Source of the DNA: Escherichia coli
GTDB taxonomy: Bacteria > Pseudomonadota > Gammaproteobacteria > Enterobacterales > Enterobacteriaceae
DNA: 64,000 bases
NCBI RefSeq assembly: GCF_041248615.1
Contig: NZ_CP158426.1
Direction: 5' to 3' (one strand)
Of the stretch, positions 3,399-64,000 are shown in pieces (within the stretch, counting starts at the first letter, position 1; the number at the start of each line of letters is the position of its first letter). Made by a program: the position numbers and the translations under genes. Under the pieces are notes generated by a model. That model searched no databases. It had not been told where the DNA came from and saw only the letters and a list, made by a program, of their open reading frames with translations.

Positions 3399-3404
3399 AT
3401 TTGC

Positions 3405-4933: not shown

Positions 4934-4944
4934 GAGGAATTAAT

Positions 4945-5568: not shown

Positions 5569-5605
5569 TCGGCCTTTATTTTTGGCATAAACAACAGAGG
5601 TGAAT

Positions 5606-7025: not shown

Positions 7026-7049
7026 TAAAACCAACATAAGGAACCACCC

Positions 7050-7487: not shown

Positions 7488-7495
7488 GGCAAATT

Positions 7496-8760: not shown

Positions 8761-8785
8761 ATTATTGCAAAATAAGGATTCCATT

Positions 8786-9082
8786 ATGCCAGCGCCTCTG
8801 TATGGTGCGGATGACCCGCGCAATTGCTCCGGTAGCTCCAAGGCGGAGGTGCTGGAAAATATCAAAAACAATTTCGACGCGTTTCTTGCTCTGACACCAG
8901 AAACAAAAGCAGAACGGATGTACCGACGCGATATACAACTCGCGCTAAAACAGGAGAAGGACCGAACAAACGAAACAGCAATGAGACCGTTGCGAAAAGC
9001 GACAATAGACAAATTCCCTGAATATATCGACCCGCGCCTGCGTAATTACCGCTCACGCTATGGCGCTATCAGTAATGACTGA
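8786..9082 (+). CDS. Hypothetical protein (98 aa)
   Basis: ORF track 8714..9082 trimmed to ATG 8786 with RBS aaggatt. Confidence 0.45.
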
Positions 9083-9092
9083 GGAATTTACA

Positions 9093-9260
9093 ATGAGAGG
9101 ACTTGCATACAATCCCGGCATTCTTCCGGCAGAAATGATTATTCGCCAACGCGTAAAGCCAATGCCATCGAGAGAGGAATTGCTTAAGAGAAATTCTTTT
9201 CCGTCAGTAAATCAAAACAAATATCTGAATGCGATGTGGCGCAAAGGAGGCAAGCAGTGA
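9093..9260 (+). CDS. Hypothetical small protein (55 aa)
   Basis: ATG 9093 preceded by gagga; within track ORF 9060..9260. Confidence 0.35.
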
Positions 9261-9556
9261 GTGTATATCTTATTGATAAACGTCGACGTGGGCAACAAAT
9301 ACCACCTGTAGGAATTCCGAATCACACATGGTTTTGCGTACTTGATATCGATGGTATGGATGCGTTGGTTGACACTCGTCATTACTGCGATACCGCAACA
9401 GCTACTCCGGCGAAAGCAAAGAAAATGGCTGCTCTGATAGAAAACTGGACTCCACCTGATGGTTGGTGCAATGGGAATGATCGAGATTGGCATGAAAAAA
9501 TGAAGGGCTATATCTGCGATTTCTTACGTAAATGCAACGGCTTCAGGGTGATGTGA
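9257..9556 (+). CDS. Hypothetical protein (99 aa; GTG start assumed)
   Basis: Track ORF 9236..9556. aggagg at 9245-9250 favours GTG 9257 as the start, overlapping the upstream stop. Start is uncertain. Confidence 0.4.
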
Positions 9557-9557
9557 C

Positions 9558-10175
9558 ATGAACAAGATTGACTATCAGGCACTGCGTGAAGCGGCAGAGC
9601 AGGCAATGCATGACGACTGGGGATTTGACGCAGACCTTTTCCATGAATTGGTAACACCATCGATTGTGCTGGAACTGCTGGATGAACGGGAAAGAAACCA
9701 GCAATACATCAAACGCCGCGACCAGGAGAACGAGGATATTGCGCTAACGGTAGGGAGGCTTCGCGTTGAGCTGGAAGGCAAAGACAGCAAAATAGCCAAT
9801 CTTACCGCCGAACGCGATGCTCTTCGTGAAGGTGAGATGGGCGACGCTAGGCATAGCAACACACGGGCCGCAGCTGATATCTACTTCCAACTGGTCGAGG
9901 AGTGCGAAATTCCTGCTGGCGGATCTCTGGTCGAGTACGTTGACGATATGCGCGAGAAGCTGGAAGCTGCAGAGAAGCGCATTGCAGAGTTAGAAAGTGG
10001 TTCTCAGGCACAAAAGTTAGTTGAAGCAATCATTGTTGCGATAGAAAACGAACAGGAAAGGCTTTTTGATGAAGATTACCTAATGGATTCGAAAGAATGC
10101 ATTGACGTAATTCGTGAAGAAGTAAAGCGATGGAATGATTCCCGTGCCGCTGGCATTCGCATCAAAGGAGAGTGA
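9558..10175 (+). CDS. Hypothetical coiled-coil protein (205 aa), possibly Ea22-like
   Basis: ORF track. Acidic, coiled-coil-rich. Lies in the ea/b2-equivalent region between the recombination module and xis. Family assignment is by recollection only. Confidence 0.4.
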   Translation: MNKIDYQALREAAEQAMHDDWGFDADLFHELVTPSIVLELLDERERNQQYIKRRDQENEDIALTVGRLRVELEGKDSKIANLTAERDALREGEMGDARHSNTRAAADIYFQLVEECEIPAGGSLVEYVDDMREKLEAAEKRIAELESGSQAQKLVEAIIVAIENEQERLFDEDYLMDSKECIDVIREEVKRWNDSRAAGIRIKGE

Positions 10176-10176
10176 T

Positions 10177-10719
10177 ATGACCACTATAACCGATAAGAAA
10201 CAGTATCCCAGCGAGCAATATCTTAATGAGCTGATCACCAACATAGAGTTTGCTGCAAGGGCACCAGTTGAAGTCGTGAGAGCGATGGCAGCAGAGCTAC
10301 AGAAGCGGCGCGAAGCTGATAGTGCAGAACCTGCAAGTAATCATGAAGAGTTGCCGCTTGATTATCTCCAAGGTCAAAAAGATGGTCTTGAATGGGCTGC
10401 GCAGCTTGCAGAAGCAAATCACCCACAAACTGGCGACTGGCTTTACGATGACCCGCTGGAGCTGGCTAAAGCTATCAGAAAAGGTCCTGACATGCCCGAA
10501 TTCGATGGACCAACTCCGGTAACTCCGGATGGTTGGATAAGCTGTAGTGAGCGAATGCCCGCTCAAGATGATTGGATTTTAATTTATTCAAAGCACGGCG
10601 AGTATATGGCAGGACAGGTACAAGGGGAATACGTGGAGTTGAGCGACGGCACTTTATCGTGGTTAGGGAACGCCTTGTACTGGATGCCTCTACCGGAACC
10701 GCCGCAGGAGGTGAAGTGA
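10177..10719 (+). CDS. Hypothetical protein (180 aa), C-terminal DUF551-like domain
   Basis: Track ORF 10135..10719 trimmed to ATG 10177 with RBS aaaggagag. C-terminal W/Y-rich segment (GWISCSERMP...DDWILIY...WMPLPEPP) resembles DUF551. Confidence 0.45.
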   Translation: MTTITDKKQYPSEQYLNELITNIEFAARAPVEVVRAMAAELQKRREADSAEPASNHEELPLDYLQGQKDGLEWAAQLAEANHPQTGDWLYDDPLELAKAIRKGPDMPEFDGPTPVTPDGWISCSERMPAQDDWILIYSKHGEYMAGQVQGEYVELSDGTLSWLGNALYWMPLPEPPQEVK

Positions 10720-10997
10720 TGGACTCCTTCGCGAAATATACGATTATTGACTGGATAGCCTTCCTTCAGGTTTTACTCATCTGGTTTTATATGGCTTACA
10801 GGAGTGGACAGTGGATTGTCAGTATAGCCTGTAGCAAGGGATGGCGTTGGTGGAACCGAAAGAATAAAAAAGCACTGGCATTGGATTCGTTTTACGAAGC
10901 ATTCAATCTTAACAGCCTTCAGCCTGGTTCTGTCGTTGTAGTCACCACTCAAAGCGGCATGACGATACAAATTCACAAGCCAAAGGATGAAAAATGA
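10719..10997 (+). CDS. Hypothetical small membrane protein (92 aa)
   Basis: ATG 10719 overlaps the upstream stop, RBS ggagg. One hydrophobic segment (IIDWIAFLQVLLIWFYMAY). Confidence 0.4.
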   Translation: MDSFAKYTIIDWIAFLQVLLIWFYMAYRSGQWIVSIACSKGWRWWNRKNKKALALDSFYEAFNLNSLQPGSVVVVTTQSGMTIQIHKPKDEK

Positions 10998-11083
10998 TGT
11001 GGCCTATATGCGTTAATTGCGGACGGATGTGCCTATCTGGATGGTGCCGAAAGTGCGACAAATGCACGAAGAAAAGACAATAA
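10994..11083 (+). CDS. Cys-rich micro-ORF (29 aa, CxxC-x3-C-x4-CxxCxxC)
   Basis: MMWPICVNCGRMCLSGWCRKCDKCTKKRQ; start overlaps the upstream stop. Very short, so it may not be translated. Confidence 0.25.
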   Translation: MMWPICVNCGRMCLSGWCRKCDKCTKKRQ

Positions 11084-47717: not shown

Positions 47718-49286
47718 TTAGCGTGCCGGCTGAGTAGTCGTGGAAGACTGCTCAAAGTGATAGCGACCGGTTTTCAGGCTGCTTGGGCCGAGGCGTGCAA
47801 ACTTGAACATTAAGAACAATTCTGCCACCAGGAACAGGGTATACAGGCCGCAAATCAGCACCATTGAGAAGATGAGATCGCCTGCGGTCAGTGACGAGTT
47901 CGCCACAGCTGTCGGCAGCACTTCACCGATAGCCCACGGTTGGCGGCCATATTCAGCCACGAACCAGCCCGCTTCTACAGCAATCCACGGCAGCGGAATA
48001 CCGTACAGCGCGGCGCGCAGCAGCCATTTTTTCTCGCCAATGCGGTTGCGGATGACACTCCAGAAAGAGAGCGCGATGATTGCCAGCAGCAGGAAGCCAC
48101 ACGCCACCATGATACGGAACGCGAAGTACAGCGGCGCTACACGCGGAATGGAGTCTTTGGTTGCCTGTTGAATCTGCGCTTCAGTCGCATCAGCCACGTT
48201 TGGCGTATAGCGTTTCAGCAGCAGACCGTAACCGAGGTCTTTCTTCATGCTATTGAACTGGTCACGAACCGCCTGGTCGGTAGAACCAGAACGCAGTTGT
48301 TCGAGCAGAGAGTACGCCTTCATCCCGTTACGAATGCGTTCTTCATGCTGCACCATCAGTTCTTTCAGGCCGATAACTGGAGTATCCACGGAACGCGTTG
48401 CAATGATGCCCAGCGCGTAAGGGATCTGGATCGCAAATTTGTTCGTCTCCTCTTCCTGATCAGGAATGCCGAACAGAGTAAAGGCAGCAGGCGCAGGTTG
48501 CGTTTCCCACTCGGCTTCAATAGCAGCCAGTTTGGTTTTCTGCACGTCGCCCATTTCGTAACCAGATTCATCACCCAGAACAATAACAGACAGAACGGCA
48601 GCCATACCGAAGCTGGCAGCGATAGCAAAGGAGCGTTTAGCGAAGGCGAAGTCACGACCTTTCAGCATATACCATGCGCTGATACCGAGGATGAACATCG
48701 CGCCAGTCACATAACCAGACGCTACAGTGTGAACGAATTTCACCTGAGCAACCGGGTTAAGCACCAGCTCGGAGAAGCTCACCATCTCCATACGCATAGT
48801 TTCAAAGTTGAAATCGGACGCGATTGGGTTTTGCATCCAGCCGTTCGCAACCAGAATCCACAGTGCGGACAGGTTTGAACCGAGCGCCACCAGCCAAGTG
48901 ACACACATATGCTGAACTTTACCCAGACGATCCCAACCGAAGAAGAACAGACCTACAAAGGTGGATTCGAGGAAGAAGGCCATTAGACCTTCGATTGCCA
49001 GCGGCGCACCGAAGATATCCCCTACATAGTGGGAATAGTAAGACCAGTTAGTCCCGAACTGGAACTCCATAGTCAGACCGGTAGCCACACCCAGAGCGAA
49101 GTTGATACCAAACAACTTGCCCCAGAACTTGGTCATATCTTTATAAATCTGTTTGCCGGAAAGGACGTAGACCGTTTCCATAATGGCCAGCAGGAACGCC
49201 ATACCGAGCGTCAGTGGCACAAAAAGGAAGTGGTACATCGCGGTCAAGGCAAACTGTAAGCGCGACAGTTCGACTATATCTAACAT
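47718..49286 (-). CDS. cydA: Cytochrome bd-I ubiquinol oxidase subunit I
   Basis: Track ORF 47718..49289 trimmed to [28 protein letters not shown] (522 aa). Confidence 0.95.
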
Positions 49287-49289
49287 CAT

Positions 49290-50091
49290 GACTCCTTGCT
49301 CATCGCATGAAGACTCCGAGAGTGAACCCCGTTAGAAAGGGTCACACGCATGCCCCAATACAAAATTATTTGCTCGCCTCTATCGTTGCCATTTCATCAA
49401 AAGAGGAAAAGACAATGATAAAAAAGTTACAAATATGTTAATGAATAAACCAAATTGATCCCGTAATTATATTACGCCGCAAAATCCTTACAATAAACAG
49501 GTTTTTATTGAGCAAATTTGCATTTTTCGACAGTGATCAATTTATAGCGAAATTGTCACGATCTCACCAATTTGATCTACGACAATTTATCGTGTTTTGC
49601 AGATTTTTTTCAAGAATTAAAAATTGATTTATATCAAAACCAACCAAATATGTTAATTATGTATAAACCATAGATCATTGGTGATTTTATTGTTAATTTA
49701 TTGTGAAATATTTATGCAACACAATTATTACAATGAAAAGGTATAGATAAAAAACCAGTGTTTTATTTAACAGAACCGCCCTATCCACTTTTTATAATAC
49801 CAATTGATTAGATTAGCCAATTTGTTGCTATTTTACATAACATATTTTTATCAAAGTTAATTGATTGTTGCCTTTATGAGCACCGGCCGTAAGCCCGTTA
49901 TGTTATTGTTTCATTAGTAATAATCACTTAAATGTATCGATGAAACAGGTATGACTTAGCGGGAGTGATTGTTTCTGAGTGAACAGAGACCACTTTCGCC
50001 TGATAAATGAAAAATGAGCGATTTTTGCAAGTTAGTTTTTCTATAGCCGAGTACGCTCAGCGCCTCGCTTGATTACAATGAGGTTGCTGCT
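49290..50091. promoter_or_regulatory. cydAB upstream regulatory region (long AT-rich leader/promoter)
   Basis: About 800 bp non-coding, strongly AT-rich, immediately upstream of cydA; by established knowledge cydAB has a long multi-promoter control region. Individual sites not mapped here. Confidence 0.5.
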
Positions 50092-51036
50092 ATGAGTCCT
50101 GATAATATCAGTTCTGCTGTCAATCGCTTCTCAGGTTGGCCATCTAATGATCCTCTAAAAACAGATAAAGAATCAATGACATCACCCATGACTGTGCAGG
50201 TAATAAAGATGATTGCCGCCATCCTTGATCCACATCGGATAGTCGTTGGAATCGATACACTTTATACAACGCAGCGCGAAACATTTACCTCAGAGAGTCA
50301 ACAGCTCATTGAATCAGCATTGCAAACACTTCATGTGATGAATTTAAATAACCTGGAAACAAATCTCGATGAGGAAGGTCACTATCTGGCTTTTGGATAT
50401 AACGTTGACACTCCTGACAGAATAACCGTTTCTGCTTATAATGAAAAAAAGCCTGGCTGCTATGGTCAATGTCTTTTAATACAGGATGACGAAACAGACT
50501 TATTTAACCTGATAAAAGTTAAAATTTTTGAAGCCAGGCATAATTATGTCGCTCAATTGATGAGCGATCCGGAATTTATGTTCAAATTTAGTTATAGCGC
50601 TCAACAAAATAGATTAGAACCTCATCTTCTGGTTCCCACTTATTTCCCTCTAAAAACAAACGAACCGGTTACGCAAGAGGATGTACTGTTACTTTATCGT
50701 TTCTTTAAAATGGATGGTGATTTTAATATATTAACATCAGATGAATACATGAGTATCATGACACCTCTGATGAAGTGTGAGCGCAGCATCCACGACCACA
50801 ACAGGTATGTGACGGGCAAAGATACCCTTCTTCTGGACTATCCTCCTTCTGGTAACCAGATATATTTCCATATTTTTCCTGACGAATCAGCAACACTAGT
50901 CCTTTATTTTTCAAACAATGACATTGAATGTTTCGTCTTTGAAAGAGATATTCCGAGCCAGTATCGCTTTTTCAAAATGTTTACCAATCTGGCACTGGTT
51001 ATTGATCAGTTAACCGATGCCAATCAAATACTTTAA
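50092..51036 (+). CDS. Hypothetical protein (314 aa), AT-rich orphan gene
   Basis: ORF track. Low GC and codon usage unlike flanking core genes; no recognisable motifs. Confidence 0.45.
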   Translation: MSPDNISSAVNRFSGWPSNDPLKTDKESMTSPMTVQVIKMIAAILDPHRIVVGIDTLYTTQRETFTSESQQLIESALQTLHVMNLNNLETNLDEEGHYLAFGYNVDTPDRITVSAYNEKKPGCYGQCLLIQDDETDLFNLIKVKIFEARHNYVAQLMSDPEFMFKFSYSAQQNRLEPHLLVPTYFPLKTNEPVTQEDVLLLYRFFKMDGDFNILTSDEYMSIMTPLMKCERSIHDHNRYVTGKDTLLLDYPPSGNQIYFHIFPDESATLVLYFSNNDIECFVFERDIPSQYRFFKMFTNLALVIDQLTDANQIL

Positions 51037-51116
51037 TTTTTATATATTCCCTGTGGCAAATATTGCCAAACAATGCCCGGGGATTAATTTTTATTACTCA
51101 CGGAAAGATTTAAATA

Positions 51117-51539
51117 ATGATCCCATCTCAAATCTCTTTCAACACCCTTCCTGTCAATGCAACATACGCTTCAGAGACAACAGTTGACACACAAAAATTC
51201 TCTGACATCCTCTACTCAGCGGGGTGTTCCCTAAAGGATCTGGCTTATCTGAGCAGATGTCTGGCATCAATACATCCGACTATCGCCAAAAACATTTATG
51301 AAACAGAAAATCTCAGCGATCAAAAATTACTGCATATTGATTGCCGTAGTACAAATGAAATCAAGATAAATATCTTTTTTGGTCAACAACGAGAAGGATT
51401 AATTGAAATTAATTCTGACACTGTCATTTTTCCGATATTGTCTTCATTAATTGACTCCGCCATTTCTAAATTTCAACACCAAATCCCCGTTAACGGTTCA
51501 GTAAATCCTGACCTATTGTATGAGGATTATACTGATTAA
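51117..51539 (+). CDS. Hypothetical protein (140 aa), AT-rich orphan gene
   Basis: ORF track. Low GC; follows the 314 aa ORF on the same strand. Confidence 0.4.
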   Translation: MIPSQISFNTLPVNATYASETTVDTQKFSDILYSAGCSLKDLAYLSRCLASIHPTIAKNIYETENLSDQKLLHIDCRSTNEIKINIFFGQQREGLIEINSDTVIFPILSSLIDSAISKFQHQIPVNGSVNPDLLYEDYTD

Positions 51540-52085
51540 ATCCACCCAGTCGCGAAAATGGCCTGCGTTATTGCCAGACGTAATAAAACTTTTGATTAAC
51601 GTTACTCGTACTGGTAGCACCTTCATGTACTTTTCTTTTTTACGAAAAATCAAAAGAGCTAACAAAGGTCATAATTCGCATGAATCATTAATTATTTGTT
51701 ATTTTCAACATTATTTTTACATTAAGCAGAGATGAATTGCAGTGAAATTCGACTTAACTTTTATGAAATGCATTTACTCATGGCTAAAGCCACGTCACAA
51801 AAATGCAAATTAGAAGTTGATCACAATTATCTCAATACATCAAATCAAGTTAATTTTAAAAATTTAACATTCATGACATTAGTTGACATAACACACTGAA
51901 TTAAAATGAGAATTTGAAAACACACTTTAAACAATCATTTCCCGAAAGACATTTTGAAAATAGATCAATTGCAACATTACGGTCAGATAAAGACACTCCT
52001 GTGATATTAAACCTGTGCCGTTATGAGCGGCCATAAATACGACGTGTGTAACTTATTTTACTCTCTGTCTTACAAAGGATTACCC

Positions 52086-52535
52086 ATGAAGAAAGCAACA
52101 CTTGTGATTGGCGTTATTGGCGCGGACTGCCATGCAGTAGGCAATAAAGTTCTGGACCGCGTTTTTAGCAACCATGACTTCAGAGTTATTAATCTGGGCG
52201 TAATGGTCAGCCAGGACGAATATATTGATGCTGCCATTGAAACTGGTGCTGACGCGATTGTCGTCTCCTCTATCTATGGGCATGGCGATATCGATTGTCT
52301 GGGCATGCGCGAACGCTGCATCGAGCGTGGGCTGGGTAACATCCTGCTCTATGTGGGCGGTAACCTGGTGGTCGGAAAACATGACTTCGCTGACGTGGAA
52401 ACCAAGTTCAAAGAGATGGGATTTGATCGCGTCTTTTCCCCAAGTCATGACTTAGAAGATGTTTGTCAGCTGATGGCCCACGATATCAACCAACGTCATA
52501 ACGTTGATACTCGCATTCTTGAAGAGGCAATCTGA
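52086..52535 (+). CDS. glmS: Glutamate mutase sigma subunit (methylaspartate mutase S chain, B12-binding)
   Basis: Track ORF 52023..52535 trimmed to [24 protein letters not shown] (149 aa), a cobalamin-binding DxHxxG-type motif (ADCHAVGNK). Confidence 0.8.
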
Positions 52536-53923
52536 TGCAAATCGTCTCTGTCGATATTGGTTCGACGTGGACCAAAGCAGCCCTCTTCGCCCGGGAGGGG
52601 GACGCGTTAACGTTGGTTAACCACGTACTGACCCCAACCACCACCCATCATCTGGCGAAGGGGTTTTTCTCCAGCCTGAACCTGGTGTTAAACGTAGATA
52701 ATGCCCTCCCCCTGTTTAACAGCGGTGAGGTTACATTGAAGTATTCCTCCTCTGCCAAAGGTGGGCTGGCGGTTGCCGCAATGGGATTGGTGCCTTCTAT
52801 CACCCTGGAAACCGCGAAAGTAACCGCTCACTCTGCGGGGGCTAAAATTGCGCAATATTACGCCTACAAGCTGAACCGCCGTGATATCCAGGCACTGGAA
52901 GAAACGCAGCCCGATATTCTCTTGTTCACCGGCGGCACCGACGGCGGAGAAGAAAGCTACGGCCTGAATAACGCCCGTGTGCTGGCAGAATCCAAACTCG
53001 ACTGCGCCATTATTTATGCCGGAAACCGGGATATTCAGGACGAGGTGCAGGAGATCCTAGGGCATAAAGACCTGACCATCGTCGACAACGTTCTGCCCGA
53101 TCTTGACCATCCGAACCCTTTAGCCGCACGCCAGGCTATCTGCGACATATTCCTTAAACGCATCGTTAAAGGGAAAGGGCTGGATGTCGTTGTTGATAAA
53201 ACAGGCGAAGAACCAATGCCGACACCATGGACGGTCTTTGAACTGGTTAAGGCAATCAGTAACGTCGATCACAGCTGGAAAGAGTTCATGCTGATCGACA
53301 TGGGCGGCGCAACCACCGATGTCTATTCCGCCTGTGCCAACACGCTCTCGCCCGACACCGTTTTACACGGCGTACCGGAACCCTTCGTGAAACGGACGGT
53401 GGAAGGCGATCTGGGAATGCGCGTCTCGGCAATGGTGGTTGGTGAAAGTGCGAAAGAGTTAGTCAATGTGAATTTTGCTCAGCAACCCGCACAGCTGGAC
53501 GCTTTTTATCATTACCTCCGTCATCTAGTCGCTCATCCCGACTACTTACCCGCGAATGCAGAAGAAAAATATTTCGATACCGTCCTGGCCGGACTGTGTG
53601 TGGGTTATGCCACCGAAAGACATGCGGGCACCAAAAAAGAGGTCTGCACCTGCGTCGGCAATGTCGATTTACAGATGGGACGTGACCTGACAACCGTGCG
53701 TAAAGTCGTCGGATCCGGCGGATGGCTCTCGCGTGCCAGTCAGTTCGATATGCATCACTGGTTGAAATACCGCGAGTTAAACGACGACGGTAAACGCATT
53801 CTCTTACCGACCGAATTTGAATATTACCGCGATTCCCGGGGGCTATTACCACTGCTGGCAAACGTCGCCAGAGTCGATCCGCTGGCCGCCGCGCGCACCA
53901 GTATTCAATGCTTAACCCTATAA
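52535..53923 (+). CDS. glmL: Glutamate mutase accessory protein (MutL/GlmL-like)
   Basis: 462 aa located between the S and E subunit genes, the arrangement known from Clostridium glutamate mutase operons. Confidence 0.7.
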   Translation: MQIVSVDIGSTWTKAALFAREGDALTLVNHVLTPTTTHHLAKGFFSSLNLVLNVDNALPLFNSGEVTLKYSSSAKGGLAVAAMGLVPSITLETAKVTAHSAGAKIAQYYAYKLNRRDIQALEETQPDILLFTGGTDGGEESYGLNNARVLAESKLDCAIIYAGNRDIQDEVQEILGHKDLTIVDNVLPDLDHPNPLAARQAICDIFLKRIVKGKGLDVVVDKTGEEPMPTPWTVFELVKAISNVDHSWKEFMLIDMGGATTDVYSACANTLSPDTVLHGVPEPFVKRTVEGDLGMRVSAMVVGESAKELVNVNFAQQPAQLDAFYHYLRHLVAHPDYLPANAEEKYFDTVLAGLCVGYATERHAGTKKEVCTCVGNVDLQMGRDLTTVRKVVGSGGWLSRASQFDMHHWLKYRELNDDGKRILLPTEFEYYRDSRGLLPLLANVARVDPLAAARTSIQCLTL

Positions 53924-53941
53924 CAATTAAGGCTGCAATCA

Positions 53942-55387
53942 ATGGAACTTCGAAATAAGAAATTAACCCATGACGAATTCATGACCGAGCGGCAACAGGT
54001 ACTGAAAACCTGGGAAACCGGCAAGGATGTTGAAAACTTTGAAGATGGCGTTAAATACCAACAAACCATTCCTGAGCATAAACGCTTCTCTCTTGCGCTG
54101 TTGAAAGCAGACAAGGAAGGTAAAACCCTTAGCCAACCGCGCGCAGGTGTGGCGCTGATGGACGAACACATCGAACTACTGAAAACACTACAAGAAGAGT
54201 GCGATCTGCTGCCGAGCACTATCGATGCATATACCCGTCTGAATCGGTACGAAGAAGCGGCTGTAGGGATTAAAAAATCCATCGAAGCCGGAACCTCTAA
54301 ACTGAACGGTTTGCCGGTAGTTAACCATGGCGTCGCAGCTTGCCGTCGCCTCACCGAAACCCTGCAAAAACCGCTACAGATCCGCCACGGCACGCCAGAT
54401 GCGCGTCTGCTGGCTGAAATCTCAATGGCCAGCGGCTTTACCAGTTATGAAGGCGGTGGCATTTCCTACAACATTCCGTATGCCAAACGCGTAACGCTGG
54501 AAAAATCGATCCGCGACTGGCAGTACTGCGACCGTTTAATGGGGATGTATGAAGAACACGGGATCCGCATCAACCGCGAACCGTTTGGCCCACTAACGGG
54601 TACGCTGATCCCGCCGTTTATCTCGCACTCTATCGCGATAATCGAAGGCTTGCTGGCGCTGGAACAGGGTGTGAAATCTATCACCGTTGGTTATGGACAG
54701 GTCGGCAGCCTGACGCAGGATGTTGCGGCGATCCAGTCTCTGCGTGAACTTGCACACGAATATTTTCAGAGCTATGGCTATACCGACTATGAATTAAGTA
54801 CCGTGTTTCACCAGTGGATGGGCGGCTTTCCGGAAGACGAATCGAAAGCGTTCGCTATTATCTCCTGGGGCGCAGCCGTCGCGGGGATGTCTGGTGCCAC
54901 CAAAGTCATCACCAAAAGTCCGCACGAAGCCTGGGGCATCCCGACTGCCGCTGCCAACATTCAGGGGCTGAAAGCCTCCCGCCAGATGCTCAACATGGTC
55001 AACGAGCAGAAATTCCCGCCGTGCCCTGCGGTTGAACTGGAAATTGAACTGATTAAGAGCGAGGTTCGCGCGGTACTGAATAAAGTGTTCGAACTGGGTA
55101 ATGGTGATATTGCGCGCGGTACGGTGCTGGCATTTGAAGCGGGCGTACTGGATGTGCCGTTTGCGCCAGCCGCCTGCAACGCGGGCAAAATTCTTCCGGT
55201 CCGTGACAACACCGGCGCGATACGCGTACTGGAAGCCGGAGCCGTTCCATTGCCAAAAGATATTCTCGACCTCCACCACGATTACGTTGCTGAACGCGCA
55301 CGCTTTGAAGGACGCCAACCGACATTCCAGATGGTTGTAGATGACATCAATGCTGTATCCCACAGTAAATTAATAGGAAGACCATAA
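53942..55387 (+). CDS. glmE: Glutamate mutase epsilon subunit (methylaspartate mutase E chain)
   Basis: 481 aa; size and position match GlmE. Confidence 0.8.
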   Translation: MELRNKKLTHDEFMTERQQVLKTWETGKDVENFEDGVKYQQTIPEHKRFSLALLKADKEGKTLSQPRAGVALMDEHIELLKTLQEECDLLPSTIDAYTRLNRYEEAAVGIKKSIEAGTSKLNGLPVVNHGVAACRRLTETLQKPLQIRHGTPDARLLAEISMASGFTSYEGGGISYNIPYAKRVTLEKSIRDWQYCDRLMGMYEEHGIRINREPFGPLTGTLIPPFISHSIAIIEGLLALEQGVKSITVGYGQVGSLTQDVAAIQSLRELAHEYFQSYGYTDYELSTVFHQWMGGFPEDESKAFAIISWGAAVAGMSGATKVITKSPHEAWGIPTAAANIQGLKASRQMLNMVNEQKFPPCPAVELEIELIKSEVRAVLNKVFELGNGDIARGTVLAFEAGVLDVPFAPAACNAGKILPVRDNTGAIRVLEAGAVPLPKDILDLHHDYVAERARFEGRQPTFQMVVDDINAVSHSKLIGRP

Positions 55388-56628
55388 TGAAAATAAAACA
55401 GGCTCTGTTCACCGCTGGCTACTCCTCATTCTATTTCGATGACCAGCAGGCGATAAAAAACGGAGCGGGTCATGACGGCTTTTTTTATACCGGGGAGCCA
55501 GTAACACAGGGGTTTAACGCCGTACGTCAGGCCGGGGAGTGCGTATCGGTACAGTTGATTCTGGAAAACGGCGCGGTCGCCGTAGGTGACTGTGCTGCCG
55601 TACAGTATTCCGGGGCAGGTGGTCGCGATCCACTGTTCCTCGCAGAGCACTTTATTCCGTTCCTCAACGACCATATCAAGCCATTACTGGTAGGCCGCGA
55701 TGTGGATGCTTTCCTGCCGAATGCCCGTTTCTTCGACAAATTGCGTATTGACGGCAACTTGCTACATACCGCCGTGCGCTACGGATTATCACAGGCGCTG
55801 CTTGATGCTACCGCGCTGGCAACCGGCCGTCTGAAAACTGAAGTAGTTTGCGATGAATGGCAGTTGCCACGCGTGGCGGAATCCATTCCATTATTTGGTC
55901 AGAGCGGTGACGATCGATATATCGCCGTCGATAAGATGATCCTTAAGGGCATCGACGTGCTGCCCCATGCACTGATTAATAACGTCGAAGAGAAACTAGG
56001 CTTTAAAGGTGAAAAACTGCGCGAATATGTCCGCTGGCTGTCGGATCGTATTCTGAGCAAGCGCACCAGCGCACGCTACCACCCTACCCTGCACATCGAT
56101 GTATACGGCACTATCGGTCTGATCTTCGATATGGATCCGCTTCGCTGTGCGCAATACATCGCCAGCCTGGAAAAAGAAGCGCAAGGCCTGCCGCTCTACA
56201 TTGAAGGGCCGGTCGATGCCGGTAACAAGCCCGATCAAATTCGCCTGCTGACCGCGATTACCAAAGAGCTGACGCGCCTCGGTTCCGGCGTGAAAATTGT
56301 GGCCGATGAATGGTGTAACACCTACCAGGATATTGTTGATTTTACTGATGCCGCCAGTTGCCACATGGTGCAAATCAAAACCCCGGATCTGGGCAGTATT
56401 CACAACATCGTCGATGCGGTTCTTTACTGCAACAGCCACAGCATGGAAGCGTACCAGGGCGGCACCTGCAATGAAACTGATGTCAGTGCCCGCACCTGTG
56501 TCCACGTCGCCCTTGCCGCTCGCCCTATGCGTATGCTGGTAAAGCCAGGGATGGGCTTTGACGAAGGCCTCGATATCGTCTTCAACGAAATGAATCGTAC
56601 TATCGCGCTGTTGCAGGCTAAGGATTAA
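55387..56628 (+). CDS. 3-methylaspartate ammonia-lyase (enolase superfamily)
   Basis: 413 aa MKIKQALFTAGYSSFYFDDQQAIKNGAGHDGF...; size and N-terminus match methylaspartase as remembered. Start overlaps the glmE stop. Confidence 0.8.
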   Translation: MKIKQALFTAGYSSFYFDDQQAIKNGAGHDGFFYTGEPVTQGFNAVRQAGECVSVQLILENGAVAVGDCAAVQYSGAGGRDPLFLAEHFIPFLNDHIKPLLVGRDVDAFLPNARFFDKLRIDGNLLHTAVRYGLSQALLDATALATGRLKTEVVCDEWQLPRVAESIPLFGQSGDDRYIAVDKMILKGIDVLPHALINNVEEKLGFKGEKLREYVRWLSDRILSKRTSARYHPTLHIDVYGTIGLIFDMDPLRCAQYIASLEKEAQGLPLYIEGPVDAGNKPDQIRLLTAITKELTRLGSGVKIVADEWCNTYQDIVDFTDAASCHMVQIKTPDLGSIHNIVDAVLYCNSHSMEAYQGGTCNETDVSARTCVHVALAARPMRMLVKPGMGFDEGLDIVFNEMNRTIALLQAKD

Positions 56629-56631
56629 CAA

Positions 56632-58002
56632 ATGGCTCGTTCTTTTAAAGTCTTATCGCCAACGGCAATCCTCGGGTATGGATTCCCGGAAGAGAGCTTC
56701 CGTAAAGCGATGGCAGAATCGCCCGATCTGATCGCCGTTGATGCAGGCTCTTCCGATCCTGGCCCCCACTACCTCGGGGCGGGCAAACCGTTTACCGATC
56801 GCGCAGGGGTCAAGCGCGATCTGCGCTATATGATCACCGCAGGCGTGCAAAATAATATACCGGTGGTGATCGGAACGGCTGGCGGTTCTGGTGCCGCACC
56901 ACACCTGGAGTGGTGCCGAGAAATAATTCATGAGATTGCCCAGGAAGAGCACCTCTCGTTCTCAATGGCGCTGATCCCGGCAGACGTTGACAAAGCCATC
57001 GTCCACCAGGCGCTGGATAACGGCAAAATCACGGCGCTGGAGTTTGTCCCGCCGTTAACCCACGACGCGATTGACGAAAGTACGTATATCGTTGCGCAAA
57101 TGGGCATCGAACCCTTCCAGCGGGCGCTGAAAGAAGGCGCGCAAGTGGTGCTGGGCGGGCGCGCTTACGACCCGGCCTGCTTTGCTGCGCTTCCGATCAT
57201 GCAAGGCTTTGATGAAGGTCTGGCGCTGCATTGTGGGAAAATCCTTGAATGCGCGGCAATCGCCGCAACGCCCGGCTCAGGCTCTGACTGTGCGATGGGC
57301 ATCATTGATGACAACGGCTTTACGCTGAAGACATTTAATCCGAAGCGTAAATTTACCGAAACGTCAGCGGCTGCACACACACTGTATGAGAAATCCGATC
57401 CCTACTTCCTGCCTGGACCTGGCGGCGTGTTGAACCTGAAAGGCTGCACATTTAAAGCGGTCAATGACAGCGAAGTGTACGTCAGCGGTTCTAAGCATGA
57501 AGAAACGCCGTATGCCCTGAAACTGGAAGGTGCGCGACGAGTGGGCTTCCGCTGTCTGACCATCGCAGGAACGCGCGACCCGATCATGATCGCCGGGATC
57601 GATAAAATCATCGATGAAGTCAAAACCAGCGTTTCGCGTAACCTGTCGCTCGACGATGACAGCATTCGCATCAATTTCCACCTGTACGGCAAAAACGGGG
57701 TGATGGGAGACCATGAACCGATGCAAACTGCCGGGCATGAGCTGGGGATTGTCCTTGATGTAGTTGCACCGACCCAGGAAATTGCCAACAGCGTTTGCTC
57801 GCTGGTGCGCTCTACCATGCTGCACTACGGCTATGAAAACCGCATCGCTACCGCAGGTAATCTGGCGTTCCCGTTCTCCCCTTCTGATATCCAGGGCGGG
57901 CCGGTATACGAATTTTCCATATATCACCTGATTGAAGCCAACGACGCTCTGCGTTTTGATTTCCATATTGAACAGGTGACGCCAGAAGGAGTTCAGGCAT
58001 GA
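56632..58002 (+). CDS. DUF1446 (AtuA-like) family protein, function unknown
   Basis: 456 aa ORF inside the mesaconate operon; family assignment from memory of AtuA-like sequences, unverified. Confidence 0.45.
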   Translation: MARSFKVLSPTAILGYGFPEESFRKAMAESPDLIAVDAGSSDPGPHYLGAGKPFTDRAGVKRDLRYMITAGVQNNIPVVIGTAGGSGAAPHLEWCREIIHEIAQEEHLSFSMALIPADVDKAIVHQALDNGKITALEFVPPLTHDAIDESTYIVAQMGIEPFQRALKEGAQVVLGGRAYDPACFAALPIMQGFDEGLALHCGKILECAAIAATPGSGSDCAMGIIDDNGFTLKTFNPKRKFTETSAAAHTLYEKSDPYFLPGPGGVLNLKGCTFKAVNDSEVYVSGSKHEETPYALKLEGARRVGFRCLTIAGTRDPIMIAGIDKIIDEVKTSVSRNLSLDDDSIRINFHLYGKNGVMGDHEPMQTAGHELGIVLDVVAPTQEIANSVCSLVRSTMLHYGYENRIATAGNLAFPFSPSDIQGGPVYEFSIYHLIEANDALRFDFHIEQVTPEGVQA

Positions 58003-58316
58003 AACAGTCAATTGTCTCACTGGCGCAAGTCATTCGTTCGAAAAATGCCGGACCTTACGAACTGGTTTTAGATATTTTATTTAAAACCAAAGAAAACTAT
58101 GAGCGTGTCAAATCATCAGGGCAATTAACCCCAGAACTGATCGCGCGCTTATATCATGTTGAACCTGACTTTATTCATCGTATTGTCTGGTTTGATCCTT
58201 CTAACGCAGTAAAAATCGTCATGCCACGAGATATTATCTCCGGGAATGTAGGTGACAATGATGTCTATGGTGCACAGCAACATGCACCTTTATTAAATAT
58301 GAGTTTCGATTTGTAA
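57999..58316 (+). CDS. DUF4387-like small protein, function unknown
   Basis: 105 aa; start overlaps the DUF1446-like stop (ATGA), suggesting translational coupling and a two-protein unit. Confidence 0.4.
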   Translation: MKQSIVSLAQVIRSKNAGPYELVLDILFKTKENYERVKSSGQLTPELIARLYHVEPDFIHRIVWFDPSNAVKIVMPRDIISGNVGDNDVYGAQQHAPLLNMSFDL

Positions 58317-58476
58317 AAATCCGAATACTTTTAGCCAACTGACATCCCGTCACTTATTGCAGTTCAACACTTCAGCTATTTGTAAGGTTGTAATAGCAGG
58401 TAGATGCCTGAATCTCTATTCGGGCATCTACTTCTCCTGATTCTGATTTATCGCCGTGCACCTGATGGAGGAAAAA

Positions 58477-59757
58477 ATGAAGAAAATAAGTTTAACCACG
58501 ATGATTCTTTTGGCGCTGGTACTTGGAATGATTATCGGCGTAGTGCTCAATAACACTGCTTCACCGGAAACCGAAAAACTCTATGCGCAAGAAATATCGA
58601 TATTCACGACGATTTTCTTACGACTGATAAAAATGATTATCGCTCCGTTAGTGGTCTCTACCCTGGTGGTAGGTATAGCTAAAATGGGCGATGCCAAAGC
58701 CCTTGGTCGTATTTTTTCTAAAACACTCTTTTTATTTATTTGCGCCTCATTGCTGTCAATTGCCTTAGGCTTGATAACAGTAAATTTCTTCATGCCAGGC
58801 ACAGGAATTAATTTTGTTGCACACGGAGCCGAAACCACCGGAGTGGTCGCGTCAGAACCCTTTACGCTAAAAGTATTTATTTCGCATGCTTTCCCCACCA
58901 GCATTGTCGATGCCATGGCGCACAATGAAATTTTGCAAATCGTGGTGTTCTCAATTTTCCTCGGCTGTAGCCTGACGGCGATTGGCGAGAAAGGCAGCGC
59001 CATCGTTCACGCCTTAGATTCGCTGGCACATGCCATGTTAAAGCTCACTGGCTACGTCATGCTCTTCGCTCCCCTGACCGTATTCGCTGCTATTTCAGCA
59101 TTGATTGCTGAACGAGGACTGGCAGTTATGGTGAGCGCCGGGATCTTTATGGGTGAATTTTATTTCACCATGTTATTACTTTGGGTGCTGCTTATCGGTC
59201 TGGCCATCGTTTATGTTGGCCCCTGCATCAGACGCCTGACCCGCGCCCTTTCGGAACCCGCCCTGCTGGCATTTACCACATCCAGTTCTGAAGCGGCTTT
59301 TCCGGGAACGCTTGAAAAACTGGAGCAATTTGGCGTTTCCCCCAAAATTGCCAGCTTTGTCTTACCCATTGGCTACTCATTTAATCTTGTTGGATCAATG
59401 GCCTACTGCTCCTTCGCCACAGTTTTCATCGCCCAGGCCTGCAATATCCATTTATCCATCGGTGAGCAAATCACCATGCTGTTGATCCTGATGTTGACCT
59501 CGAAAGGAATGGCTGGCGTACCACGCGCCTCAATGGTGGTTATCGCCGCCACGCTCAACCAGTTCAATATTCCGGAAGCGGGGCTGATCTTGCTGATGGG
59601 CGTTGATCCGTTCCTTGATATGGGGCGTTCCGCGACAAACGTCATGAGCAACGCAATGGGCGCTGCGATGGTGAGTCGGTGGGAAGGCGAACATTTCGGC
59701 GAGGGTTGTCGGGGTAAAGCATTAAAACCCAATGAATCGAACGTTGCTCTGCCCTGA
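58477..59757 (+). CDS. Dicarboxylate/amino acid:cation symporter (GltP/DAACS family), likely glutamate or C4/C5-dicarboxylate uptake
   Basis: Track ORF 58456..59757 trimmed to ATG 58477 with RBS ggagg (426 aa). Polytopic with conserved DAACS-like motifs. Confidence 0.75.
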   Translation: MKKISLTTMILLALVLGMIIGVVLNNTASPETEKLYAQEISIFTTIFLRLIKMIIAPLVVSTLVVGIAKMGDAKALGRIFSKTLFLFICASLLSIALGLITVNFFMPGTGINFVAHGAETTGVVASEPFTLKVFISHAFPTSIVDAMAHNEILQIVVFSIFLGCSLTAIGEKGSAIVHALDSLAHAMLKLTGYVMLFAPLTVFAAISALIAERGLAVMVSAGIFMGEFYFTMLLLWVLLIGLAIVYVGPCIRRLTRALSEPALLAFTTSSSEAAFPGTLEKLEQFGVSPKIASFVLPIGYSFNLVGSMAYCSFATVFIAQACNIHLSIGEQITMLLILMLTSKGMAGVPRASMVVIAATLNQFNIPEAGLILLMGVDPFLDMGRSATNVMSNAMGAAMVSRWEGEHFGEGCRGKALKPNESNVALP

Positions 59758-59864
59758 GGGGGATCTTAAGCAATCAGAAGCCAATGACTACGCATTTTTA
59801 TAAGCCGGATCATGAAGTTAGACGGCAATTAAGTAAAACTAACGTTTAAGGTGAAAAGTGAAAT

Positions 59865-61517
59865 ATGTCCAAACCATTTATCTGGCAAGAACCGTTTCTA
59901 CAAAATAAAGACGGTACAGAATATACATTAATTAGCGATCAACATATTACAGTAACGGAATTAGACGGCGAAGAAGTAATAAAAATCGCTCCTGAAGCAT
60001 TAACGCTGCTTGCCCGGCAGGCATTTTATGAAGCCTCTTTTTTCTTACGTTCCGCTCATTTGCAACAGGTCGCCAGCATTCTTAACGATCCGCAGGCCAG
60101 TAGTAATGATAAATACGTTGCGTTGCAGTTATTACGTAATGCTGAAGTCTCAGCAAAAGGGGTATTACCCAACTGTCAGGATACCGGCACCGCAACTATT
60201 GTTGCCAGTAAAGGGCAACAGATATGGACGGGAGGTAACGACGCTGAAGCCTTAAGCAAAGGCATTTACAGTACTTTCCAGGAAAATAACCTGCGCTTTT
60301 CACAAAATGCGCCGCTGGATATGTACACCGAAGTCAATACGCAAACCAATCTCCCGGGGCAGATTGATATCAGCGCTGTCGCTGGTGATGAGTACCATTT
60401 TCTCTGTATTAATAAAGGGGGCGGCTCTGCCAATAAAGCCGCGCTTTATCAGGAAACCAAATCCTTATTGCAACCAGAAAAACTGACCGCATTTTTAATC
60501 GAAAAAATGAAATCGCTGGGCACCGCTGCCTGCCCGCCTTACCACATCGCCTTTGTCGTCGGAGGGCTTTCAGCCGATCAAACCTTAAAAGTTGCCAAGC
60601 TGGCCTCAACGAAATATTACGACAATTTGCCCACCAGCGGAAACGAGCAAGGACAAGCATTCCGTGATATTGAGCTGGAAAAAGTATTGCTCGAGGCCAG
60701 TCAGCAATTTGGTATTGGTGCGCAATTTGGAGGTAAATATTTCGCTCATGATATTCGCGTCATTCGTCTGCCGCGTCACGGTGGCTCCTGCCCGATAGCT
60801 ATGGCGCTCTCCTGTTCTGCCGATCGCAATATCAAAGCAAAAATTAACAAGCACGGTATCTGGCTGGAAAAACTCGAACACAATCCGGGGCAATATATTC
60901 CAGCCTCACTGCGGGAAGAAAATCACGCGCAACATGTACAACTGGATCTAAACCGTCCGTTGCGTGACGTGATGCAGGATCTCGCCAGATTACCGGTAGG
61001 CACCCGCGTGTCGTTAAGTGGTCCCATCGTAGTGGCACGCGATATCGCCCACGCCAAAATAAAAGCGCGGCTGGATAACGCCGAACCGATGCCGGATTAC
61101 CTGAAGCATCATATTGTCTATTACGCTGGCCCGGCGAAAACACCGGAGAACATGGCCTGCGGTTCACTGGGTCCAACCACGGGCGGTCGAATGGACGGTT
61201 ATGTCGATACCTTCCAGGCGGCTGGCGGCAGTCTGGTGATGTTATCGAAAGGTAACCGCAGCCAGCAGGTCACCGATGCCTGTCACAAACATGGTGGCTT
61301 CAATCTGGGTAGTATTGGCGGTGCAGCTGCGTTACTGGCGCAAGAATATGTCAAAAGTCTGCGTTGCCTGGAATACCCGGAGCTGGGTATGGAAGCGGTG
61401 TGGATGATGGAAGTGGAAAATCTGCCCGCATTCATCCTGGTAGATGATAAAGGCAATAATTTCTTTAGTCAGTTTGAGCAGCAACACCGCTGCGCCAGTT
61501 GCCCTGCGGGACATTAA
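59865..61517 (+). CDS. fumD: Class I fumarate hydratase family enzyme (mesaconase/fumarase FumD-type)
   Basis: 550 aa FumA/FumB-like Fe-S hydratase (C-terminal CxxC-containing region). Its context with glutamate mutase and methylaspartase implies mesaconate hydration. Confidence 0.75.
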
Positions 61518-61526
61518 GGAAAATGA

Positions 61527-62129
61527 ATGGAAGCGCGAATTTCAACTGAACGGCATGTGCAGCGCCAGCAGAAATTGAAGGAACAGGTCGATACGCGCGT
61601 CGCGGCGGCGATAGAGAAAAAAGGGATTTTGATTGTTTTCACCGGCAATGGCAAAGGGAAATCCACTGCCGCGTTTGGTACTGTGACGCGCGCGGTGGGT
61701 CATGGCAAAACGGTGGGGGTTGCGCAGTACATCAAGGGGCAATGGGACAACGGCGAATACAACCTTCTCCAGCCGCTGGGGGTTGAGTTTCATATTATGG
61801 GAACCGGTTTTACCTGGGAGACACAGAACCGGCAAGCGGATATCGACGCGGCGAAAGAGGTCTGGTCGGAAAGCAAACGGATGCTGGCTGACAAGCGTTA
61901 CGACTTAGTGGTGCTTGATGAGCTGACCTATATGCTGGCTTACCATTATCTGGACACCGAAGAAGTGATCGCTTCTCTGCAAAACCGCCCGGCACAACAA
62001 AGTGTCATTGTCACCGGACGCGGTTGCCACAGTCAGATATTAAAAATGGCGGATACGGTCAGCGAAATCCGCCCCGTCAAACATGCTTTTGATAACGGCA
62101 TTCAGGCGCAGCCGGGTATCGACTGGTAA
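61527..62129 (+). CDS. Cob(I)alamin adenosyltransferase (CobA/BtuR-type)
   Basis: 200 aa with P-loop GNGKGKSTAAFG; highly similar to E. coli BtuR from memory. Likely supplies adenosylcobalamin for glutamate mutase. Confidence 0.8.
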   Translation: MEARISTERHVQRQQKLKEQVDTRVAAAIEKKGILIVFTGNGKGKSTAAFGTVTRAVGHGKTVGVAQYIKGQWDNGEYNLLQPLGVEFHIMGTGFTWETQNRQADIDAAKEVWSESKRMLADKRYDLVVLDELTYMLAYHYLDTEEVIASLQNRPAQQSVIVTGRGCHSQILKMADTVSEIRPVKHAFDNGIQAQPGIDW

Positions 62130-62162
62130 TAACTGCGCCTGGCATCCCGCCAGGCGCAGGTT

Positions 62163-63068
62163 TTACATCTCCTGCGGTACGACCGATTTCGCCAGCAACC
62201 ATTCACGAAATTGCTGCAAGTGCGGCGAGTCAGACTTCTCTTCCTGCCACGTCATAATAAAACGATTACCGGTACGAATAGGCACATCACAGGGAATCAC
62301 CATATCGCCACTATCCAAATCATGTTGAATAGCGAACCGTGGTAACAGCGCCACGCCGAGATTAGAGCGCACGGCGGCAATCAGCATTGAAAGCAAATCG
62401 AAACGTGGTCCGTTATTGACCAGCGGACTGCTAACGCCAGATAAAGCAAACCACTCTTCCCAGCCAGTAATACGGGTGCTTTGATGCAGAAGTGGTAACT
62501 CAGTAAGCAGTTCTGCCACTGACAGTTTTTGATCGGACATTGCAAGCAAACTGCCGCTGCATACCGGCAAAATCTCCTCATCAAAGAGATATTCTACTTC
62601 CGCCCAGGGCGCGCAAAAATTTTCGCGCATAATGACAGCATCGTACTCCCGATTAAGAAAATCGCCGTTATTAGCTAAAGAATGAATATTAACAATAATA
62701 TCGGGATGTAACTTTGTGAATTCATGTAAATTTGGGATTAACCAGTGGGTACTAAAAGTAGGATTAACGGCAAGTTCAATAACCTGAACCGTAGGCTGCC
62801 AGGTCATAATGGTATTGGTATCGCGTTCCAGCTTATTTAATGTTTCTTTTACTATCCCCAGGTAATACTTCCCTGCATCATTAAGAAAAATACGTTTTTT
62901 AGAGTGTGAAAATAACGGAGTATGTAAAAATTCCTCCAGCGCACTCACTTGTCTGAATACAGCACTTTGGGTTAACGCTAACTCCTCTGCCGCTCTGGTA
63001 TAACTTTCATGACGTGCGACGACCTCAAAAGTCACCAGCAGCTCCGTTTTAGGTATTTTTCCTCGCAT
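62163..63068 (-). CDS. LysR-family transcriptional regulator
   Basis: 301 aa with N-terminal LysR HTH (ESYTRAAEELALTQSAVFRQVSALE). Convergent with the operon. Confidence 0.8.
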   Translation of the reverse strand: MRGKIPKTELLVTFEVVARHESYTRAAEELALTQSAVFRQVSALEEFLHTPLFSHSKKRIFLNDAGKYYLGIVKETLNKLERDTNTIMTWQPTVQVIELAVNPTFSTHWLIPNLHEFTKLHPDIIVNIHSLANNGDFLNREYDAVIMRENFCAPWAEVEYLFDEEILPVCSGSLLAMSDQKLSVAELLTELPLLHQSTRITGWEEWFALSGVSSPLVNNGPRFDLLSMLIAAVRSNLGVALLPRFAIQHDLDSGDMVIPCDVPIRTGNRFIMTWQEEKSDSPHLQQFREWLLAKSVVPQEM

Positions 63069-63635
63069 AATGCCGTCCCTTAAAAATAGTTTAAACCATC
63101 AAAAATACATTACTTATTACGAAGTAATGGTAACCAAAGCAGCAATAAATAATTTATAAGAATCATGATTGACATTTATAACCCAGTAAGCCTAGCGTGA
63201 CAAATATCTTAATCAGATAATAATAATCCGAAAAGCACAGCGCCTTTCGAATTATCCGGAATCACATTAAGTGAAAATTATTAAATTGATATCATTTATC
63301 ATATCTGTGGATATTATGATAAACAATCAACAAAGATTTTATTTTTGATTTATAGCATATCCCTCTAAGAATTTTTGCGATGCTGCAATATCCGGGTAAA
63401 GACCCGATCCTGGCTGACAAATGGCACGACTTGACGATAAGCGGTGAACATCGCTTTTGTTGATTTACTTAACGCTACGGTCAAACGCTGGGAAGCCAGT
63501 GCATCAGGTAACGATTCGAAATTCGCCGTCGTTCTTATTCGTGGCTTGCGGTCGGTTGCGGCAATCCACAGTGGCTGTGGTCATGCAGTCAAGCCAGCGG
63601 TCAGATTTCGACCGTGGTTAACATTTAAGGCATAA

Positions 63636-63661
63636 AAAAGGCCATCATACGATGGCCAACC
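63636..63661 (-). terminator. Intrinsic terminator downstream of sucD
   Basis: Hairpin ggccatcgtatgatggcc followed by tttttt on the minus strand. Confidence 0.45.
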
Positions 63662-63732
63662 ATGTCGAAACCGACAGCCCTTCGCCATTCCTGTAGAGGG
63701 AAGCGGCGAGGGCTATTTCTTATTACAGATAT

Positions 63733-64000
63733 TTATTTCAGAACAGTTTTCAGTGCTTCACCGATATCCGCCAGGCTGCGAACGGTTTTCACGCCTGCGG
63801 CTTCCAGAGCAGCGAATTTCTCATCCGCAGTCCCTTTTCCACCGGCAATGATCGCACCCGCGTGGCCCATACGTTTGCCTTTCGGCGCAGTCACACCAGC
63901 GATGTAACCCACAACAGGCTTGGTAACGTGCTCTTTGATGTACGCAGCCGCTTCTTCTTCAGCGCTACCGCCGATCTCACCGATCATCACGATCGCTTCG
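63733..64000 (-). CDS. sucD: Succinyl-CoA synthetase alpha subunit, 3' part (partial; continues beyond window end)
   Basis: C-terminal 85 aa ...[44 protein letters not shown] matches the SucD C-terminus from memory. Confidence 0.85.

Follow-up and report, generated by a model that had tools for sequence, protein, structure and literature searches.

A cluster-linked CobA-type adenosyltransferase gene, distinct from btuR, in the glutamate mutase cluster of Escherichia coli

Why should an E. coli genome that already encodes the housekeeping cob(I)alamin adenosyltransferase BtuR carry another adenosyltransferase gene inside the cluster for an adenosylcobalamin (AdoCbl)-dependent enzyme, glutamate mutase, and would that enzyme be dedicated to the mutase? 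The question is raised by cobO, a gene found in a 64,000-nucleotide stretch of E. coli DNA (contig NZ_CP158426.1), the whole of which is referred to here as the window. A preliminary description had presented the gene as an island-encoded paralog, highly similar to chromosomal BtuR, that secures the coenzyme for glutamate mutase and makes the island self-sufficient for cofactor activation. We examined the family membership of cobO, its genomic setting, its relatives in E. coli and in other genera, and the residues that set it apart from the housekeeping enzyme.

Identity of cobO and layout of the cluster

The open reading frame of cobO, which runs from an ATG start to a TAA stop and encodes 200 amino acids, is intact in the window. 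Its product matches the Pfam family CobA_CobO_BtuR (PF02572) with an E-value of 4.7e-64 and 216.2 bits against a cut-off of 25.7, over profile positions 1-172 of 172, and scores 246.6 bits against the NCBIfam equivalog TIGR00708 (cobA; cut-off 167.75) and 295.6 bits against NF004637 (cut-off 185). The curated cut-offs that define CobA/CobO/BtuR proteins are exceeded across the entire domain, and the family match is far beyond chance. A search of solved structures with the cobO product returned matches to Salmonella enterica CobA only (1g5r, 1g5t, 1g64 and 4hut); the alignment with 1g5r (E-value 2.5e-88) places residues 6-200 on residues 2-196 without gaps, and the identity to the solved Salmonella protein is 68% over the full length. 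The identical gene in RefSeq is annotated by PGAP as cobO (WP_000388207.1). The CobA/BtuR-type adenosyltransferase originally proposed at this position is thus borne out by PF02572, TIGR00708, NF004637 and 1g5r alike.

The gene closes a series of plus-strand genes extending from 52086 to 62129 in the order glmS-glmL-glmE-mal-AtuA-DUF4387-transporter-fumD-cobO (Table 1), and lies immediately behind fumD, as expected from its reported location at the 3' end of the glutamate mutase cluster. The FumD protein of E. coli O157:H7 (ECs0757) has been characterised biochemically as a mesaconase (PMC4682846). At the other end of the series, the longest open reading frame for glmS begins at 52023 (170 aa), while the RefSeq ATG lies at 52086 (149 aa) and the profile match begins at residue 22-24. 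In the window, the LysR-family gene that converges on cobO has an undisturbed reading frame (301 aa); it is annotated as frameshifted in CFSAN018748 (L001:14637-15541), the cobO of which is 100% identical.

Table 1. Features of the glutamate mutase cluster and of the sequence around cobO, in window co-ordinates
Feature	Position	Strand	Basis
glmS, B12-binding subunit S of glutamate mutase	52086..52535	+	RefSeq start, NCBIfam
glmL/mutL, glutamate mutase accessory protein	52535..53923	+	Pfam; NCBIfam NF040745, 508.9 bits
glmE, glutamate (methylaspartate) mutase subunit E	53942..55387	+	Pfam; TIGR01503, 865 bits
mal, methylaspartate ammonia-lyase	55387..56628	+	Pfam; TIGR01502, 543.9 bits
AtuA/DUF1446 family protein	56632..58002	+	Pfam
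DUF4387 protein	57999..58316	+	Pfam
Sodium:dicarboxylate symporter (SDF) family transporter, GltP-like	58477..59757	+	Pfam/NCBIfam; RefSeq start; longest ORF from 58456
fumD, class I fumarase/mesaconase	59865..61517	+	NF011921, 1281 bits; PMC4682846
AAGGA, a Shine-Dalgarno-like motif with 6 nt between it and the following cobO ATG; overlaps the stop codon of fumD (61515-61517)	61516..61520	+	Sequence reading
cobO, cluster-linked CobA/BtuR-type ATP:co(I)rrinoid adenosyltransferase	61527..62129	+	ORF, Pfam/NCBIfam, 1g5r match, RefSeq WP_000388207.1
Hairpin: 11 bp stem with 9 G-C pairs, 5-nt loop, then GTTTTA	62133..62159		Terminator scan and fold
LysR-family regulator, convergent with cobO	62163..63068	-	ORF and Pfam; neighbour of cobO in every related cluster

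Most junctions between glmS and cobO overlap or measure less than 20 nt, the exceptions being a gap of 140 nt before the transporter open reading frame (58316-58456) and one of 108 nt before fumD (59757-59865), in which internal promoters or terminators could lie. Only 9 nt separate the fumD stop from the cobO start and, with the putative ribosome-binding site of cobO placed over the end of fumD, the two genes are presumably coupled in translation. A scan of the plus strand upstream of cobO for sigma-70-like promoters found no site. Downstream, a hairpin begins 3 nt past the cobO stop and folds with -28.1 kcal/mol (z -6.95 against shuffled sequences); the 3' end of the convergent LysR gene (62163) lies 4 nt beyond it, and the hairpin is a probable terminator for both genes. 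Because of the 9-nt gap, the lack of a promoter-like site directly before cobO and the terminator-like structure behind it, fumD and cobO are likely to be co-transcribed, and a single operon from glmS to cobO is plausible. An Rfam scan of positions 49000-64000 found no family at the gathering score, cobalamin riboswitches included, and control of the cluster by a B12 riboswitch or another known RNA was set aside on this result.

The claim of self-sufficiency in cofactor activation goes too far. An adenosyltransferase and the accessory protein GlmL are encoded in the cluster; searches with Pfam and NCBIfam profiles found neither a Co(II)-to-Co(I) reductase (a counterpart of PduS or CobR) nor genes for corrinoid uptake or synthesis among its members. 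A CobA-type enzyme depends on flavodoxin or reduced flavin (PMC4083273), and these would have to come from the host.

Two adenosyltransferase lineages in one genome

Positions 49000-64000 of the window are 100% identical to a segment of the chromosome of E. coli NRZ14408 (NZ_LT599825.1, 3668665-3683665). This chromosome also holds yciK-cobO (btuR) at 2958635-2959225, about 724 kb from the cluster and in the context sohB-yciK-btuR-rluB, as in K-12, so that the second btuR postulated elsewhere in the genome does exist. When btuR was used as query, 5422 of 5425 matching records possessed a copy at least 90% identical that is located next to yciK, whether the cluster is present or not. These records, together with the presence of yciK-btuR in the same chromosome as the cluster, rule out that cobO is the only btuR copy, that is, a relocated core gene.

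The cluster-linked gene is itself widespread within the species. Among 5,426 complete E. coli genomes, 1122 records contain a cluster copy with at least 95% identity, and those listed show matches at two places; a further 4303 records contain only the match to cobO of approximately 68%. Sequence identity reaches at least 99% in 937 records, and at least 80% of the query is covered in all 1122 carriers. In 1116 E. coli genomes the surrounding 15-kb stretch is recovered over 80% or more of its length, as compared with 1122 records with cobO, and gene and cluster therefore co-occur almost perfectly.

The E. coli counts include seven places labelled as plasmid. In the one inspected, pFXCREC043-3 (NZ_CP195869.1, positions 1-11000), the genes extend from mal through cobO and the LysR gene to sucD, and nearly every coding sequence is frameshifted or contains internal stops. 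The copy is probably an artefact of an assembly that is chimeric or rich in errors, and not a cluster that has been mobilised; one or more of these seven places are likely due to it, and we accordingly set plasmid-borne copies aside.

The description of cobO as highly similar to chromosomal BtuR proved to be overstated. The two proteins of the same genome share 67% amino acid identity (83% positives) and the genes approximately 68% nucleotide identity; the protein value is under the median of 79% obtained when the housekeeping copies of most Enterobacterales are compared. In a scan for relatives in which each species was represented by one genome, the matches were distributed bimodally, with 13 full-length loci at 81-86% identity and then a gap down to the housekeeping copies at 71% or less. 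These 13 loci derive from eight Citrobacter genomes, a Raoultella metagenome-assembled genome, Lelliottia, two Buttiauxella and Klebsiella michiganensis, hence from five genera other than Escherichia. All 13 are collinear with the window, in the order glmL-glmE-mal-AtuA-DUF4387-transporter-(glutaminase)-fumD-cobO followed by the convergent LysR gene, and at least nine of the 13 genomes also yielded a housekeeping copy in the same scan.

Neighbour-joining analysis placed the cluster-linked copies in a separate clade with a bootstrap value of 100/100, while the housekeeping copies group by genus, broadly in keeping with taxonomy. Identity between cluster-linked and housekeeping copies is 62-72%, as against the median of 79% among the latter. 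All 14 members of the clade, from six genera, are located after fumD in a glm cluster. Judged by these sequence relationships, cobO belongs to an old separate lineage, either a xenolog or an ancient paralog. A recent duplicate of btuR within the species is ruled out by the 67% identity to BtuR, set against 81-86% to the cluster copies of other genera, and by the 100/100 support for the clade. The gene is also under strong purifying selection: in comparisons of E. coli with the other genera, pN is approximately 0.09 and pS approximately 0.68-0.84 (saturated), and dN/dS is 0.04-0.055 where it can be estimated, that is, about 0.05 or less and similar to btuR, a value to be read as an upper bound only, since half of the comparisons show saturation at synonymous sites.

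The sister of the cluster-linked clade is a copy from Morganella morganii (bootstrap 97/100), in which the arrangement of genes is different. In this organism (NZ_CP066129.1, 6573-17112) the order is transporter-fumD-cobO-(M48 peptidase fragment)-LysR, directly adjoining the end of a cobalamin synthesis operon that encodes CobT, a histidine-phosphatase, CobS, CobU and CbiP; no glm or mal genes are found within 10 kb of the M. morganii locus. A further variation concerns a glutaminase gene (PF04960), which lies between the transporter gene and fumD in the Citrobacter, Klebsiella, Lelliottia, Buttiauxella and Raoultella clusters (e.g. L003:7135-8136). The corresponding interval in E. coli (59757-59865) is a gap of 108 nt without glutaminase.

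In K-12-type genomes the interval between sucD and cydA is occupied by mngR-mngA-mngB (L087, 764376-769834), whereas in the window the same interval (49289-63733) contains orphan genes, the glm-to-cobO cluster and the LysR gene. The mngRAB genes and the glm-to-cobO genes are thus two alternative cassettes at one site. The Citrobacter and K. michiganensis clusters also adjoin sucD-sucC. With respect to base composition, the G+C content is 0.535 for cobO, 0.51 for the cluster and 0.49 for the window, so that the cluster resembles the E. coli core, and an island of foreign composition is ruled out by these core-like values. The word island is therefore better replaced by old variable cassette, given the sucD-sucC neighbours in other genera, the core-like G+C content and the alternation with mngRAB, and the cluster has the look of an ancient cassette that alternates with another, not of a mobile island acquired in recent times. 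The one part that does look foreign in composition is an AT-rich segment between cydA and glmS (49300-52000), where G+C falls to 0.34-0.39 from approximately 0.52 on the flanks. Two plus-strand open reading frames in this segment (50092-51036, 314 aa, and 51117-51539, 140 aa) have no Pfam match and are hypothetical proteins in RefSeq.

Conserved residues and probable role of the cluster-linked enzyme

Salmonella CobA and E. coli BtuR (compare 1g5r, 1g5t, 1g64 and 4hut) are of the same family and fold as the cobO product and align with it over the full length without gaps, at 67-68% identity. The P-loop of the cobO product, GNGKGKST (residues 40-47), fits the modified MgATP-binding motif GNGKGK[TS]T, and alignment indicates that the CobA residues R9, N37, K39, K41, T43, R51, F91, W93, E128 and R161 are all retained; N37, K39, K41 and T43 (CobA numbering) are invariant in the alignment. 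In the window protein, F95 and W97 correspond to F91 and W93 of CobA and are invariant in 83 of 83 sequences. The title of Moore et al. 2012, as cited in PMC5282855, presents these two residues as critical for forming four-coordinate cob(II)alamin by displacement of the lower ligand.

Set against this conservation, the cluster-linked copies differ from CobA and BtuR not only as a separate clade but also in an N-terminal extension of four residues, in the replacement of the P-loop residue T42 (CobA numbering) by Ser in 14 of 14 copies, and in 18 positions that are fixed within the clade and different from those of the housekeeping copies. At the position equivalent to Arg165 of CobA, 68 of 68 housekeeping copies have Arg, whereas each of the 14 cluster-linked copies has Ala, Ser or Thr (Ser169 in the window protein, codon 62031-62033). 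Arg9 is kept, as R13 of the window protein. Both arginines are reported by Buan and Escalante-Semerena (J Biol Chem 2005) to be needed for flavodoxin docking and flavodoxin-dependent activity and to be dispensable for catalysis. Arg165 is not a catalytic residue that defines the family.

Taken together, we consider it probable that cobO encodes a functional CobA-type enzyme that belongs to an old lineage tied to the cluster and raises the supply of AdoCbl for glutamate mutase. In the mechanism envisaged, CobO would be produced alongside FumD at the least, and probably alongside the products of the whole glmS-to-cobO string; it would convert reduced cob(I)alamin and ATP into adenosylcobalamin, and the local supply of coenzyme for GlmS/GlmE would rise once the cluster is switched on. 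Family membership, intact catalytic residues, the status of a second copy, conserved linkage and purifying selection are shown by the analysis; from these we infer that the enzyme is active, that its gene is co-transcribed with those of the mutase and that glutamate mutase is what benefits. Because the linkage is conserved, AdoCbl supply for the mutase is a reasonable supposition and, by analogy with other systems, a dedicated supply would be the best reading of the locus. Two features characteristic of pathway-dedicated adenosyltransferases are found here, namely the conserved linkage within the cluster (14 of 14 copies in six genera) and the coexistence of a housekeeping copy.

A cluster copy would not be strictly required, since the host has BtuR and glutamate mutase from Clostridium works in E. 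coli, where its expression has given mesaconate titres near 23 g/L (PMC7100375). We assume that the hosts used in that work carried only btuR, a point on which the review is silent. Nor does the mutase seem to have a general need for a dedicated adenosyltransferase, as none is listed in the clostridial clusters for glutamate fermentation (Fig 4 legend, PMC4682846). It is conceivable, if on balance unlikely, that cobO is a redundant general-purpose adenosyltransferase that feeds the AdoCbl pool or corrinoid salvage, its position in the cluster reflecting history and not a special tie to glutamate mutase. An ancestor with a layout like that of Morganella may have had cobO as a housekeeping or biosynthetic cobA beside the cob operon: the nearest outgroup, the M. 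morganii copy, adjoins a B12 synthesis operon and is remote from glm and mal genes. The catalytic residues, all of which are as in the housekeeping enzyme, and the performance of the clostridial mutase in hosts with, as we assume, btuR alone would also agree with a role of this kind. It does not account readily, however, for the position after fumD kept by every copy of the clade in six genera despite a housekeeping copy, nor for the positions fixed differently from housekeeping enzymes, and strong purifying selection is unexpected for a truly redundant gene.

The replacement of Arg165 raises another possibility, that the cluster-linked proteins form a specialised CobA subfamily which, having lost this arginine and fixed about 18 other positions, takes its electrons from another donor or passes AdoCbl directly to GlmS or to the chaperone GlmL. 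We regard this proposition for the subfamily as very doubtful and its application to cobO as a specialised variant, with another electron donor or with direct delivery of AdoCbl to GlmS in a chaperone-like manner, as human MMAB does for methylmalonyl-CoA mutase, as slightly more doubtful still. The uniform loss of Arg165 in the clade is the sole hint in this direction, read together with the part that Arg9 and Arg165 are said to play in flavodoxin docking; the 18 clade-specific positions and the N-terminal extension would be compatible with it. Arg9 is nevertheless retained, and the cluster has no gene for a partner reductase. Direct transfer of the cofactor is a known property of PduO-type enzymes and is not known of the CobA type. 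Were the proposition true, the cluster-linked CobO proteins would be the first enzymes of the CobA type to deliver the cofactor to a mutase as its dedicated partner.

That cobO is, in E. coli, the silent or decaying remnant of a disused cluster is highly improbable: the cluster could not be brought to expression in O157:H7 and the fate of citramalate is given as unknown (PMC4682846), the adjoining LysR gene is frameshifted in CFSAN018748 and E. coli lacks the glutaminase gene of the other genera, but the reading frame is intact in the window, carriers retain the gene at near identity and over most of its length, and the dN/dS between genera is low.

Relation to known systems

Three families of adenosyltransferases are distinguished, namely CobA, EutT and PduO (PMC5282855). 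In the favoured interpretation, as a supplier of AdoCbl to the mutase, the role of CobO would parallel that of PduO and EutT in the propanediol and ethanolamine operons, by way of a different enzyme family. The likeness lies in an extra adenosyltransferase gene placed among the cluster genes for an AdoCbl-dependent enzyme, the housekeeping CobA/BtuR being encoded in the genome as well. In contrast to PduO and EutT, to which it is unrelated in sequence, CobO is of the CobA family, and its cluster has neither a counterpart of PduS (PMC4083273) nor microcompartment genes. The dedicated role proposed here is assigned by analogy. It differs from BtuR, which is encoded beside yciK, in being encoded within a catabolic cluster.

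The gene has been noticed before. The legend to Fig 5 of Kronen & Berg 2015 (PLoS One 10:e0145098, PMC4682846) names GltP, FumD, CobA (cob(I)alamin adenosyltransferase) and a LysR-type regulator, and this CobA and the cobO of the window are one gene in one cluster, named there and not analysed. According to the same authors, 26.5% of E. coli strains and 90.6% of O157:H7 strains carry the cluster; they never obtained expression of it and state that the fate of citramalate is unknown (PMC4682846). A literature search with the Sakai locus tags for expression or phenotype retrieved the FumD paper only. As a gene annotated by PGAP and drawn as CobA in Kronen & Berg 2015, cobO is therefore an already known and ordinary feature. 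What is added here is the presence of two copies in one genome, the separate clade, the evidence of selection, the conserved chromosomal position and the replacement of Arg165.

The locus accordingly carries little weight as a discovery, and is of modest practical value for moving the cluster to another host. In such a transfer the cluster would supply its own adenosyltransferase and GlmL, whereas corrinoid uptake and reductant would still be provided by the host, and it is relevant that the clade is altered at a position reported to function in flavodoxin docking. The main biological interest resides less in cobO than in the cluster as a whole, including the conditions under which it is expressed, the fate of citramalate and the role of the AtuA and DUF4387 proteins. 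The genes for the AtuA/DUF1446 and DUF4387 pair (56632-58316) overlap at their stop and start codons, and identities of approximately 91% and 85% are kept in every related cluster; the pair is a candidate for the step beyond citramalate.
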